From NCBI RefSeq assembly GCF_056712565.1, contig NZ_CM160072.1: a DNA stretch of 64,000 nt, one strand, 5' to 3'. Shown piece by piece: positions 38,301 to 44,300 of the stretch; positions within the stretch are counted from its first letter, which is position 1, and each line of letters starts with the position of its first letter. A program made the position numbers.

Positions 38301-41300
38301 GTCATTCAAAATCGGCATACCTTCCTTTAATGTATTTATTTTCCCAATAAATATATGAGATTTACCTCATAATTACTTCCTAAAGTGTAATATTTTATTT
38401 TTTAATATATACGCCTACAATTTCCTGGAGTAAATAAATAACAATTAACAAGCATAATATTGCCATTGATAAAATAGCATGCCATAAAAGGACTTTTCAG
38501 GGATGAGTAATATTGTTTATCTGACAGTAACGGGAGAACAACAAGGAAGCATCTCCGCAGGTTGTGGGACTACTGAATCTATAGGTAATCGCTGGCAGAG
38601 CGGTCATGAGGATGAAATATTTACATTCTCACTCTTAAATAGTATTACTAATACGGGGCTTGGTTCACAGTTCCATGGTATAACATTTTGTAAATTAATT
38701 GATAAAAGCACTCCATTATTTATTAATTCCATTAACAATAATGAACAATTATTTATGGAATTTGACTTCTATCGAATAAATAGATTTGGTAGATGGGAAA
38801 AGTATTATTATATACAACTAAGAGGCGCTTTTTTATCGGCTATTCATCACCAGATCTTTGAAAACCAACTGGATACAGAAACAATAACTGTTAGTTATGA
38901 ATTTATCCTCTGCCAACATCTTATCACTAACACCGAGTTCAGCTATTTGGCACTCCCTGAAAATTATAACCGCTTGTTTTTACCAAATTCAAAAAACAAA
39001 ACAAATAATGGTTTAAAAACGTTAAACAGCGAAGCTGTTGGCAGGCTACTTGCTGCTGGTGGCGTATACAATGGGAACATTGAAGGATTCAGAGATACTG
39101 CGGAAAAACTGGGTGGAGATGCAATCAAAGGCTATGATCAAATACTAAATGAAAAAACAGCGGGCATAGCGATAGCAACAGCATCTATTCTTTTAACAAA
39201 GCGTTCTAATGTTGATACATATACAGAAATAAATAGTTACTTAGGCAAACTTAGAGGCCAACAAAAACTTCTTGATAGTATAGACATAATAGAAATAATA
39301 TAAATTAAGAGACCTTCAAAAGACTTAGCTAACTTACGAAAGGAGTTTAATAAAAATGTAAGAAAAAATTTTCTTATCAAACTTGCAAAAACCTCCGAAG
39401 CATCTGGAAGATTCAACGCCGAAGACCTTTTAAGAATGAGAAAGGGCAATGTTCCTCTAAATTATAATGTACACCATAAACTATCTCTAGATGATGGTGG
39501 TACTAATGATTTGGAAAATTTAGTATTAATCGAAAACGAACCATATCATAAGGTTTTTACTAACATGCAATCACGAATAGCTAAGGGAATATTAGTGGGT
39601 GAAAGCAAAATCACTCCCTGGGCCATTCCATCTGGCTCAATTTATCCTCCCATGAAAAATATTATGGAACCCACAAAATGATGACTAAAACCCAAATAAA
39701 TAAATTAAAAAAAATGATGAATGATTTAGACTATCCATTTGAAGCACCGCTCAAGGAATCATTTATTGAAAGTATAATCCAAATAAAATTTAATTCTAAC
39801 TCAACTAATTGCCTGGAGAAGTTATGTAATGAAGTTAGTATTCTCTTTAATAATCAACCTGATTATCTTACTTTTTTAAGAGCAATGGATGGATTCGAAG
39901 TTAATGGATTACGATTATTTAGCCTCTCGATTCCAGAACCTTCAGTTAAAAACCTTTTTGCCGTAAATGAATTTTATAGAGATAATGATGATTTCATAAA
40001 TCCTGACTTACAAGAACGGTTAGTGATCGGGAATGATAGCATTTCAATATTTACTTATGACATTAAAAGTAACTTTTTTGAAATTAGAGATAATATTGGC
40101 ACAGAAAATATATTCAGTTCGTTTAGTGATTTCTCTTCATTCTTAAACGAAATCATGGACAGTTGTTCATAATAATAAAAAGGTAACCAAAATCATTGTA
40201 AACCATGCCATCTTTTTAGAGTTTACCAGCAGTAAATTTCTTGATCGAAATTTATCAATACAAGCTATAGAAAAACTTACAACGGAACTACACTCCTTAA
40301 GTGAGATGGACCGAAGACATGTAGTCGCTATTTAAACTGAAATAGCTAATGGCGATGATGATCTTAGTGACATGTTGATTTGGTTAGAATTTTACCCGAA
40401 TCATAAGATTCTGATATCTTAAATGAGCAAATCCGGTTCGACGTTCTGGAAAATAAATCACAAAATATTAGCAGATACTTATTTTGTGACTATACCTTAT
40501 CCGATGAACTCTTTTCAAAACCAGCATTTAATAATATCTTTGACGAAGATGAACGCGTCTTTGCTCAATGTATAACGCAGGAATAATAATATAACGCTAA
40601 ACAATAATATTTATTATAATTATGATTACTTATCACGACGCATTCGCGAAAGCGAACAATTACCTTGATGATGCAAATCTCCCGGTCGTCATTACTCTAC
40701 ATGGACGCTTTAGCCAGGGCTGGTATTTCTGTTTCGAAGCACGAGAATTTCTCGAAACTGGAGATGAGGCCGCGCGCTTAGCTGGTAACGCACCTTTTAT
40801 TGTTGATAAAGGCAGTGGTGAAATTCATTCTCTGGGAACGGCAAAGCCACTGGAAGAATATCTACAGGATTATGAAATAAAAAAGGCTACCTTCGGCTTG
40901 CCCTGACAATACGGCCCTCTTCCCACTAAGAGGGCCGCTAACCTTAATACCCCGCCGTTAAATCATCCACCGAGCGCGGGTCGGATGCACCGTACAGCTC
41001 ACCGTCCGGCCCAATCATAATGCTTTGTGTACTGCCCATCGCCTCTTTCAGCGCCACTTTCTGACCTTTTGCTTCCAGCAGCTTGATCGTATCCGGGCTA
41101 AACCCTTTTTCGACACGCAGCTCGTCCGGCAACCACTGATGGTGGAAACGCGGCGCATTGGTCGCTTCGGCGACGTTCATTCCATAATCGATGCTATTCA
41201 CCACCATTTGCAGCACAGTGGTGATAATCCGGCTACCGCCTGGGCTTCCGGTGACCAGCCAGGTTTTACCATCCTTGACCACAATGGTTGGTGACATCGA

Positions 41301-44300
41301 CACAGCGGGCGTTTATTCGGCCCGACGGCGTTGGCATCACCGCCCACCAGCCCGTAAACGTTCGGTACGCCTGGTTTGGCGGAGAAATCATCCATTTGGT
41401 TATTAAGCAGAATACCGCTCTCGCCCGCGACAATGCCCGTACCGAAGGTGGTATTCAGCGTATAGGTCACCGCCACGGCGTTACCGTCTTTATCCACTAC
41501 TGAGTAATGGGTAGTTTGATTACTCTCATAAGGCGCAAGCTTGCCAGGACGAATTTCGCTGGATGGCTTCGCTTTATTGATATCGATTTGATCGGCAATA
41601 GATTTGGCATAGGCTTTATTGGTCAGCGCCTGCCACGGTACTTTGACAAAATCCGGGTCGCCAAGATATTCCGAGCGGTCGGCATAGGCGTATTTCTCAG
41701 CTTCTGCCATGATTTGCATCGCGTCGGCACTGCCAAAGCCGTACTTCTGCATATCGAAGTTTTCCAGAATATTGAGGATTTGTACGATATGAATACCGCC
41801 GGAAGATGGCGGTGGCATGGAGTAAACCTGATACCCGCGATAATCGCCGCTTATCGGTGTGCGTTCGACCGCTTTATATGCCGCTAAATCTTCTTTGCTG
41901 ATCAAGCCACCGTTTTTCTGCATCTCCTGGGCAATCTGTTCCGCTATCGTGCCTTTGTAGAATTCATCCGGGCCGTTTTCGGCAATCATCTCCAGGCTCT
42001 TTGCCAGGTTCGCCTGCACCAGCTTGTCGCCCTTTTTCAGCGGTTCGCCCTCTTTCCAGAAGATAGCTTTGCTGTTTTCGTGGTTCGGCAGCACTTCACT
42101 GCCGTAGGTTTTGAGATCGTCAGCCAGCGCGTCGTTAACGATAAAACCATCGCGTGCCAGTTTAAACGCCGGTTGCACCACTTTATTCAACGGCATGGTG
42201 CCGTATTTATCCAGCGCCAACGAGAAACCCGCTACCGTACCGGGTGTGCCGGAAGCCAGATGCGAAGTGAGTGATTTTTTGCTGTCCGGGTTGCCCTGAT
42301 CATCGAGGAACATATCGCGGGTCGCTTTGGCGGGTGCCATTTCGCGGAAATCGATAGCCGTGGTATTGCCATTTTTCGAGCGGATCAGCATAAAACCACC
42401 GCCGCCCAGATTCCCTGCCTGCGGATGCGTTACTGCCAGCGCGTAGCCCACCGCCACGGCGGCATCAACGGCATTCCCGCCCTCCTTGAGGATATCCACC
42501 CCCACCTGAGTGGCAGTAGCATCTACAGACGCCACCATTCCCTGCTTAGCGCGTACCGGATGAAAGACATCTTCCTCCACACCATAAGAAACAGGTGGCG
42601 CGGCTACCGTACTAAAACAACTTCCTGTGAGCAGAGCAGCAATGGCCACCCGGCGTAAAAACGTCGGTTTTATCATCGTTATTCTCCAGAGATTAAGGGG
42701 CAACCCCAGCTAAGCCTGGTATATAACTCTGAATTAATCATCGTTTTGCCGGGAAGCGAGTAAACTTAAAGAATATCTTCAGAGGAGGATACGCGATGAA
42801 ACGACTTCTGCTTTTGACGGCACTCCTGCCGTTTGTCGGCTTTGCACAGCCCATTAATACTCTGAACAACCCTAACCAGCCGGGATATCAGATCCCCAGC
42901 CAGCAGCGGATGCAAACTCAAATGCAGACGCAGCAAATCCAGCAAAAAGGGATGCTGAACCAGCAACTGAAAACGCAAACGCAGCTGCAACAGCAGCATT
43001 TAGAAAACCAGATAAACAATAATTCTCAGCGGGTGTTGCAGTCACAGCCGGGGGAGCGAAATCCCGCCCGGCAGCAAATGCTGCCCAACACCAACGGCGG
43101 GATGTTAAACAGCAACCGTAATCCGGATAGTTCGTTGAATCAGCAGCATATGCTGCCGGAGAGGAGAAACGGCGACATGCTGAATCAGCCCAGCACGCCG
43201 CAGCCTGACATTCCGTTGAAAACTATTGGGCCGTAAAGTTCGGACCAATCACGTCAATCGCATCGGTACAGATGCAATCCACGCCCCAGCGCAGCAACTC
43301 TGCCGCGCGCTGGGGTTTATTGACGGTATAAACCAGAATCCGTAATCCGGCATCTTTCAACTGCATCACTCGCGCTTTATCGAGCAACTTATGATTGAGA
43401 TGAATAGAGACGCAGCCCAGTCGCGCGGTCAATTCTCGCCAGTCGTCGCGCCATTCATCAAGCAATAAACCACGCGGCAGTTCCGGTGCTGCCTGTTGCG
43501 CGGCTTCTAAAGCATCAATCTCAAACGATGACAGCAGCGGCGGCGTCATACCGGTCCACAGTTCGCGTGCCGCCAACGCCACCGTTTTGCCCGTTAATGG
43601 TCCAGTGCCAGTGGTGGGTTTGATTTCGATATTCGCCATCATCCCGTGTTCGCGGCAGCGTTCCGCCACCTGCGAAAGCAACGGCAGCGGCTCACCTTTA
43701 AACGCTTTGCTGTACCAACTGCCTGCATCCACGCGCAGTAAATCCTGCCAGTTCAGCTCGCCCGCAACGCCCCAGCCGTTGCTGGTACGTTCGAGATTGT
43801 CGTCATGGAGCAGGAAGATCTCGCCATCTTTCGATAACTTCGCGTCAAATTCGATCATCTTATGACCGTATTTTGCCCCGACGTCGATTGCCGCCAGGGT
43901 GTTCTCCGGGGCCAGCTTACCGCCACCACGATGGGCGACGATGCGGGGATAAGGCCAGTTACTCATACTCGTTGTCCTGTTTCACCATCAAAAAGATGCA
44001 GCTGATTTTCCGGCAGATGCAGCCACAGCGTGCTGCCTGCCGTCGGGCGCTCCTGATGTGCCAGTCGCACCACCAGCTTCTGTTCGCCCCAACGTCCGTG
44101 CGCCAGGTTATCTGCGCCGAGGATCTCCAGCGTGTCCATCACCAGCGGCACACCACCTTCTGCCTGCGAGCTTAGCGCTATATGTTCCGGGCGAATGCCG
44201 AGGGTCATTTTACGCCCGGCATACTGACGGTAGCCACCGTTTAGCGGCAGCGTAATACCACCATCCAGTTCGAAATGCGTACCTTCGTTATTCACGCGGC

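Follow-up and report, generated by a model that had tools for sequence, protein, structure and literature searches.

A one-base deletion probably made ggt a young pseudogene in an ST95-like sublineage of Escherichia coli

The ggt gene encodes the periplasmic gamma-glutamyltranspeptidase/glutathione hydrolase (GGT), whose product in intact E. coli is a proenzyme, an Ntn-hydrolase. In the stretch of DNA analysed here (64 kb, hereafter the window) the gene lies on the minus strand, flanked by yhhA, which is divergent, and yrhB, which is convergent, in the same order as in UTI89, HS13-1 and K-12. It measures 1733 nt versus 1734 nt in intact ST95-type alleles, so that its frame is disrupted relative to the intact orthologues of the nearest genomes. 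A scan of the locus for promoter and terminator consensus sequences gave a signal no different from that of shuffled sequences. The features of the locus are the following:

40944..42676, minus strand: whole ggt, read as a pseudogene; start codon ATG at 42676, native stop codon TAA at 40944
41303..42676, minus strand: native-frame 5' part, residues 1-458, equivalent to K-12 residues 1-461
41513..41515, minus strand: codon of the Thr that acts as nucleophile in catalysis and autoprocessing (Thr391 in K-12, Thr388 in this allele)
41301..41302, between these bases: site of the single-base deletion, from alignments and a base-by-base walk
41198..41302, minus strand: out-of-frame tail of 34 codons (CRCHQPLWSRMVKPGWSPEAQAVAGLSPLCCKWW) plus a TGA/TAA-type stop, from translation, the stop ending at 41198
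40944..41312, minus strand: stranded 3' part in the -1 frame, K-12 residues 462-580 (SMSPTIVV...DDLTAGY)

Translation and alignment to PDB 2e0w and 2dbu (A/B chains) show that the native-frame 5' part contains the signal peptide, the entire large subunit and residues 1-71 of the small subunit. Thr391, Asn411, Gln430, Asp433 and Arg114 (K-12 numbering) remain encoded in frame. The true junction of the subunits, between Gln390 and Thr391, is directly 5' of the Thr codon and reads ESNQ followed by TTHYSVV. An initial annotation of this DNA had located the lesion at this junction, which proved to be wrong: the deletion comes 71 codons after the Thr391 codon (41515-41513) and thus falls within the small subunit, 71 residues into its 190. 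The stranded 3' part encodes Ser462/463, Met464, Gly483/484, Arg513 and Arg571, and its frame is open from 41312, being closed by a TAA that precedes the deletion by 4 codons. The small subunit is therefore not complete in any one frame, the native frame being gone at codon Ser462 and residues 462-580 being found in the -1 frame only. Because of this loss of frame at Ser462, we file the locus as a pseudogene of the PF01019 family (MEROPS T03, Ntn-hydrolases) and not as a functional member.

The ORF listing of the window mirrors this arrangement. The upstream ORF (41198..42703, minus strand) has 492 aa counted from the canonical ATG at 42676 and runs through ...GPNKRPL before continuing as CRCHQ...KWW up to its stop, in agreement with the initial annotation, which had the frame kept as far as this point and then lost. 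The downstream ORF (40944..41303, minus strand, 119 aa, MSMSPTIVVKDGK...DDLTAGY) holds the rest of the small subunit in another frame, also as first described. The GTG start proposed for it is indeed reported by the ORF finder, at 41303, but this is an ORF-finder call only, and an exact protein look-up found no record of the 119-aa product as a called gene. Against Pfam PF01019 (gathering cut-off 27 bits) the 492-aa product scores 499 bits over profile positions 2-397 and the 119-aa ORF 125 bits over positions 399-510, while the intact UTI89 protein gives one match covering 2-510. Since the two segments abut and the UTI89 match is unbroken, the two ORFs are consecutive pieces of one gene.

Alignment against UTI89 and a base-by-base walk against HS13-1 both indicate that exactly one base is missing from ggt. 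On the plus strand a G is absent between 41301 (C) and 41302 (A), in the context ATCGAC[G]ACAGCGG; on the coding strand this is a C, the second base of a TCG codon (CTG T[C]G TCG ATG). The string CATCGACACAGCGGG sits at 41295-41309, and the suggestion that a single base had been lost from a CGACGAC repeat was exactly right. The codon hit corresponds to Ser462 of K-12 (Ser459 here), inside the conserved PLSSMXP motif, in which CCG CTG TCG TCG ATG encodes P-L-S-S-M. Putting the base back restores a gene of 1734 nt that is 100% identical to UTI89 ggt. As the gene is otherwise unchanged, its loss appears to be recent. Across the whole window only two differences separate this DNA from HS13-1, the gap in ggt and one SNP, with no other indel. 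The product predicted from the deletion allele consists of 458 native and 34 out-of-frame residues, 492 in all, and is without 119 of the 190 residues of the small subunit, including Ser462/463, Gly483/484, Arg513 and Arg571.

A search of 5,426 complete E. coli genomes in RefSeq for the exact 61-mer spanning the deletion gave no match; this count covers exact matches only, and a divergent ggt allele with the same deletion would go uncounted. The intact 62-mer is present in 1,257 of these genomes. A 32-mer spanning the deletion had no match in JGI metagenome contigs, which suggests that the allele is rare. The exact 492-aa product is nevertheless recorded in 35 collection blocks (NCBI, ENA, Logan), and the deletion k-mer was recovered from at least 11 loci in eight of these samples, each differing from the window by 0-2 SNPs. 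Because these private SNPs differ among them, the carrier loci represent distinct isolates. Carriers include GCA_053191745.1, GCA_958329195.1 and GCA_027274065.1 from NCBI, ERZ14694921 and ERZ27285345 from ENA, and several Logan SRR runs, among them SRR13502494 and SRR27904596. GCA_027274065.1 is strain EC_4957_2L3_D, a phylogroup B2 isolate from broiler disease assembled with Unicycler from 704x Illumina plus Nanopore reads and published in a Saskatchewan broiler genome announcement, its Illumina reads being SRR22784455; a literature search on the other carrier run accessions found no publication.

The SNP that accompanies the deletion in the window is a C at 38146, 3.2 kb from ggt, and causes the nonsynonymous change D123A in yhhY. 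Both of these private variants are absent from the RefSeq complete genomes. GCA_027274065.1 has the two of them, while GCA_053191745.1 has the deletion and the ancestral base in yhhY; the SNP is therefore nested inside the deletion clade, where it arose later. Judging from the nearest neighbours of the window in sequence (UTI89, S88, APEC O1, IHE3034 and ST95-32), the lineage appears to be ST95-like. A separate nonsense allele of ggt, E325* (GAA to TAA), occurs in another E. coli lineage (protein P0010) in 67 collection blocks, and it too is absent from the 5,426 complete genomes. In the literature on ggt pseudogenes and on ST95 we found no description of the deletion allele.

Taken together, a genuine, vertically inherited deletion of one base very probably made ggt a young pseudogene in one ST95-like (phylogroup B2) avian/extraintestinal sublineage. 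Since single-base indels are the commonest assembly error, and since the allele is missing from every complete RefSeq genome and from the JGI contigs, one might suppose that ggt is in truth intact and the gap an artefact of this assembly. We consider this highly improbable. An intact reading frame on resequencing, which the initial annotation had named as the observation that would speak against a frameshift, is not what was found: exact-protein look-ups returned the same truncated product, and the same DNA, from independent NCBI, ENA and Logan assemblies that are separated by private SNPs, one of them the 704x Illumina-polished hybrid. The site is not a homopolymer, no further indel versus HS13-1 is found in the rest of the window, and the deletion is seen in none of the 1,257 genomes that share the 62-mer context, which makes a systematic error specific to this context unlikely. 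On these grounds sequencing error was rejected. A deletion that is real could still leave the cell GGT-positive if a second copy of ggt were present elsewhere, and in many ST95 genomes two places do match a ggt query. The extra places, however, amount to 2,110 for the last 171 nt of the gene versus about 2,700 for the whole coding region, a remainder of about 590; the one example looked at lies on plasmid pWP4-S18-ESBL-07_1 with 91% identity and is annotated as an incomplete fragment, and the median number of ggt places per genome is 1. The two-place matches being mostly a 3' remnant of about 170 nt, a compensating copy was rejected as very unlikely.

The remaining alternatives would have an active enzyme made from the disrupted gene itself. 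A -1 ribosomal frameshift, or transcriptional slippage, anywhere in the 115 nt where the two frames overlap would rejoin most of the small subunit, and spontaneous frameshifting occurs at a low level in all genes. The overlap, however, is free of X XXY YYZ heptamers and of homopolymer runs of at least 5, which led us to reject a programmed event or slippage, and the TAA that comes 4 codons before the deletion shuts the downstream frame. If the shift took place after the deletion, it would swap residues of the essential PLSSMXP motif. Nor is the two-frame arrangement conserved, as it is found in 0 of the 5,426 complete genomes and the 1,257 relatives with the same context are in frame. That recoding restores a useful amount of full-length GGT, leaving ggt functional, is accordingly very hard to credit. 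Even less probable, to the point of being negligible, is a split gene in which the 492-aa product and a 119-aa (or 87-aa) product are both made and reassemble as an active enzyme. The ORF finder does offer the GTG at 41303, and gene callers in other assemblies predict an 87-aa downstream product with a PF01019 match, but neither the GTG nor the ATG is preceded by a Shine-Dalgarno-like sequence (AATAAACGCCCGCTGTGTCGATG), and the downstream piece has no signal peptide whereas GGT matures in the periplasm. Moreover, the protein is interrupted within the PLSSMXP motif and the core of the fold, not at the natural cut between Gln390 and Thr391. Phase variation was rejected as well, because there are two TCG units only and what was lost is one nucleotide from inside a unit, not a whole unit; no long homopolymer and no multi-copy tract of short repeats was found at the lesion.

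Inheritance of a genuine deletion thus being the preferred reading, its expected effect can be outlined. Loss of the middle base of the Ser462 codon would cause 34 out-of-frame codons to be translated up to a stop, giving a product of 492 aa that would retain the signal peptide, the large subunit and Thr391. This product would lose the substrate-binding residues Ser462/463 and Met464, the oxyanion-hole residues Gly483/484, and also Arg513 and Arg571, on which autoprocessing depends. In B. licheniformis GGT, mutants with deletions in PLSSMXP lose processing and activity, and cutting more than 9 residues from the C-terminus abolishes processing; in E. coli GGT, the substitutions S463D/K, R513A and R571G block maturation, and Gly483/484 have been described as the oxyanion hole of the enzyme. 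By analogy with this published mutagenesis, we strongly infer that the frameshift should abolish gamma-glutamyltranspeptidase, neither autoprocessing nor GGT activity being expected. GGT of E. coli resides in the periplasm, and cells that lose it are reported to leak glutathione. The cell would then not cleave periplasmic glutathione or gamma-glutamyl peptides, would not salvage cysteine and glycine by that route, and would leak more glutathione, with little effect expected on growth in rich environments. No polar effect is expected, since ggt is monocistronic between its divergent and convergent neighbours. The allele is best described as an ordinary, recent and lineage-specific loss of function that involves no new mechanism, the loss of activity itself being deduced from the mutants just mentioned.

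In practical terms, annotation should treat the frameshifted gene as a true pseudogene and not "correct" the frameshift as if it were an error. Strains of the sublineage are predicted to be GGT-negative, so that exogenous glutathione could not serve them as a source of cysteine and glycine. The deletion, together with the nested yhhY C at 38146, provides a clean marker for tracking this ST95-like APEC/ExPEC sublineage. Together with the independent E325* allele, the deletion shows that E. coli can do without ggt well enough for the gene to be lost more than once. Whether such losses bring any benefit is another matter, and we regard it as unlikely that the loss of GGT is adaptive and not neutral in the poultry-associated sublineage. 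If it were, sparing of periplasmic or extracellular glutathione might, for example, protect against oxidants or disinfectants, or a toxic gamma-glutamyl-linked compound might escape activation; the nested D123A change in yhhY, the gene of a detoxifying acetyltransferase, could then be a second hit under the same selection, and E325* a convergent loss in another lineage.

Compared with intact E. coli ggt (b3447 in K-12; WP_000595129.1 in UTI89 and HS13-1), which occupies the same locus between yhhA and yrhB, the window allele lacks one base in codon Ser462 and has residues 462-580 out of frame. In common with other ST95-type alleles, it is also without one APP repeat near the N-terminus when compared with K-12, an intact product of 577 versus 580 aa. 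A natural parallel is ggh (psi-ggt) of Neisseria gonorrhoeae, a pseudogene of meningococcal ggt with frameshift and nonsense lesions that is still transcribed and from which a truncated product can sometimes be detected (Takahashi and Watanabe 2005, PMC1262726). In both cases a ggt orthologue was hit by a point lesion in one lineage while a close relative keeps an active gene. The gonococcal pseudogene, however, is fixed across the species and shows several lesions (an ochre codon and a 7-bp deletion), whereas the window allele has one 1-bp deletion and belongs to a small, recent, within-species clade. The engineered PLSSMXP-deletion and C-terminal truncation mutants of B. licheniformis and E. 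coli GGT, in which autoprocessing and activity are lost (Chi et al. 2019, PMC6769717; PMC8062742, a review), resemble it in that the natural lesion strikes the same motif and removes everything C-terminal to it. They are in-frame laboratory constructs analysed as purified recombinant enzymes, unlike the window allele, a natural frameshift with a foreign tail of 34 residues. Finally, E325* is likewise a natural truncation of ggt at the same locus, present in many assemblies, but differs in ggt haplotype, in type of lesion and in position, since it lies within the large subunit.

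The ggt gene, which encodes the gamma-glutamyltranspeptidase of E. coli, is read in the window as two pieces in different frames:

40944-42703, minus strand: region holding the gene
41198..42703, minus strand: upstream ggt ORF, 501 aa as listed, 492 aa counted from the canonical ATG at 42676
40944..41303, minus strand: downstream ORF with a GTG start, 119 aa, MSMSPTIVVKDGK...DDLTAGY

The ORF listing gives the upstream sequence as ...VGPNKRPL followed by CRCHQPLWSRMVKPGWSPEAQAVAGLSPLCCKWW and a stop. A Pfam search shows that the upstream product covers positions 2-397 of the PF01019 profile and the downstream product 399-510, whereas the intact UTI89 protein covers 2-510 unbroken, so the two ORFs are successive parts of one gene and not a chance ORF pattern. 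Alignment with UTI89 and a base-by-base walk against HS13-1, the closest relatives with an intact ggt, show that one base is absent: on the plus strand the G of ATCGAC[G]ACAGCGG is gone between 41301 and 41302, and the coding strand reads CCG CTG T[C]G TCG ATG without the C. The single-base loss from CGACGAC proposed in the initial annotation is thus exactly right, and the string quoted there, CATCGACACAGCGGG, was located at window 41295-41309. Putting the base back yields a 1734-nt gene whose DNA is 100% identical to UTI89 ggt and which encodes an intact 577-aa protein; since the rest of the gene is the same as the intact allele, the pseudogene is young. The ST95-type gene has one APP repeat fewer near the N-terminus (AAPPVSYG against AAPPAPPVSYG in K-12, window about 42596-42604, minus strand) and a signal peptide with three residues unlike K-12, hence 577 rather than 580 aa, a normal allelic difference common to UTI89.

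Alignment with K-12 ggt (b3447, 580 aa) identifies the affected codon as Ser462, within P460-L-S-S-M-S-P466. The lesion had been placed at the junction of the large and small subunits; this is wrong, because the codon of the nucleophile Thr391 (window 41515-41513) lies 71 codons upstream of the deletion, and the break falls within the small subunit. In the PDB alignment, only the first 74 of the 190 residues of the small chain 2dbu_B align to the window product. The product keeps residues 1-458 (K-12 1-461), adds 34 foreign residues and loses K-12 462-580. The gamma-glutamyl pocket is lined by Ser462 and Ser463, and an enzyme with S463D or S463K neither matures nor has activity; Gly483 and Gly484 serve to stabilise the oxyanion, and with R513A or R571G the E. 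coli enzyme no longer processes itself; in Bacillus licheniformis GGT, deletions within PLSSMXP abolish autoprocessing and activity, and C-terminal truncation by more than nine residues abolishes processing (PMC8062742, PMC6769717). Since all these residues and motifs are lost together, the mutagenesis literature indicates that the truncated polypeptide should be inactive and unprocessed, and it is probably unstable. E. coli GGT is a periplasmic enzyme with which the cell draws amino acids from gamma-glutamyl peptides and glutathione; when it is lost, more glutathione leaks out (PMC8062742). The flanking genes are divergent (yhhA) and convergent (yrhB), and therefore polarity is not expected.

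The 1851-bp region matches 5,422 of 5,426 complete RefSeq E. coli genomes, the top matches, at 99.9% and one base longer, being ST95-type strains (UTI89, S88, APEC O1, IHE3034, NU14, ATCC 11775 and 'ST95-32'). The exact 61-mer centred on the deletion has no match in these genomes, while the intact 62-mer is present in 1,257. At first the lesion looked private and hence a possible error, an impression overturned by an exact-sequence look-up: the 492-aa truncated product is present in 35 blocks of the collection of public assemblies, drawn from NCBI, ENA and Logan. All the loci retrieved as L004-L008 and L015-L020 contain the deletion k-mer, and they differ from the window by 0-2 SNPs across 4.6-21.5 kb, gap-free. 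Private SNPs differ among loci (32509 in L015, 45249 and 48001 in L016, 34984 in L011), so the carriers are distinct isolates and not one re-deposited genome. One assembly, GCA_027274065.1 (L009), belongs to phylogroup B2: its strain, EC_4957_2L3_D, is a disease isolate obtained on a broiler farm in Saskatchewan, and the sequence was built in Unicycler from 704x Illumina and 99x Nanopore coverage (PMC10190287). A context-specific systematic artefact is unlikely, because 1,257 genomes have the same local sequence but keep the base, and no homopolymer lies at the site. These comparisons indicate that the deletion is a genuine, inherited mutation carried by a rare sublineage; JGI metagenome contigs, scanned with a 32-mer spanning it, returned nothing, consistent with rarity.

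Over its full 64,000 bases the window departs from HS13-1 at two points only, the ggt gap and one substitution at 38146, A to C, which changes codon 123 of yhhY (37779-38267, plus strand) from GAT to GCT (D123A). YhhY is a GNAT N-acetyltransferase. No genome among the 5,426 complete ones has this variant, and an exact look-up finds the D123A protein in 29 blocks of the assembly collection. Both variants occur in L009, and L015 (GCA_053191745.1) has the deletion with the ancestral yhhY base, so the ggt deletion came first, with the yhhY change falling inside its clade. An adaptive loss of GGT in this poultry-associated lineage, perhaps tied to the yhhY change, is improbable; its support is limited to the finding that two private changes, both function-altering, lie 3.2 kb from each other within 64 kb, which chance alone would produce about 1 time in 10.

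The window also holds other broken genes. The Hcp-family T6SS effector gene yhhZ/tssD (38503-39681, plus strand) is split into a 266-aa ORF (38503-39303) and an 81-aa ORF (39436-39681); in both UTI89 and HS13-1 it is listed as a pseudogene carrying an internal stop, and unlike that of ggt the lesion is therefore common to the wider ST95-type lineage. Both genomes also annotate yrhD (about 40267-40422, plus strand) as a pseudogene with an internal stop, and the window equals HS13-1 here. The HS13-1 annotation reports a frameshift or internal stop in rtcR (about 5693-7290), a hypothetical gene (11605-12372) and a fimbrial protein gene (15139-15653); since the window is identical to HS13-1 there, these lesions are older and lineage-wide, not private.

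Could GGT nevertheless be made? The two frames overlap by 115 nt, as recoding to full length would need, but the downstream frame is already shut by a TAA that lies four codons 5' of the deletion, the overlap contains neither an X XXY YYZ heptamer nor five or more identical bases in a row, and the two-frame arrangement is not kept in relatives among the 5,426 complete genomes; recoding is thus very unlikely. Reassembly of two separate products is hardly credible at all, given that the downstream piece has neither a signal peptide nor an evident ribosome-binding site, that the break falls within the essential PLSSMXP motif, and that the 119-aa product is on record nowhere as a called gene by exact look-up. 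Many complete genomes do have two places per record with a ggt match, as expected if a second copy compensated, but a ~170-nt remnant from the 3' end of a ggt gene accounts for most of the extra places (the last 171 nt gives 2,110 of them), and we give compensation very little credence. Present as the second 'place' in some 2,100 complete E. coli genomes, this remnant does not amount to a functional gene copy. On plasmid pWP4-S18-ESBL-07_1 (NZ_AP022088.1; L025:4001-4170) it is 91% identical to the window, is annotated incomplete and adjoins phosphotriesterase-related, DMT transporter, amidotransferase and PfkB kinase genes. Phase variation was also considered and rejected: the site has just two TCG units, and the base lost is not a repeat unit.

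The evidence supports reading the window ggt as a pseudogene of a well-characterised enzyme, with a predicted loss of activity, produced by an ordinary lineage-specific loss-of-function mutation. The literature search found no published description of this allele, and the deletion can serve as a clade marker and an annotation note. Independently, another ggt haplotype of E. coli carries a nonsense change, E325* (GAA to TAA); 67 collection blocks have this allele (L021:3473-3475, Logan SRR10231211; also GCA_946062535.1 and ERZ27274168), and no genome among the 5,426 complete ones does; ggt is therefore evidently dispensable enough in E. coli for more than one loss. The closest published precedent is gonococcal ggh (psi-ggt), which is orthologous to meningococcal ggt but disrupted by frameshift and nonsense mutations, and whose transcription persists (PMC1262726).
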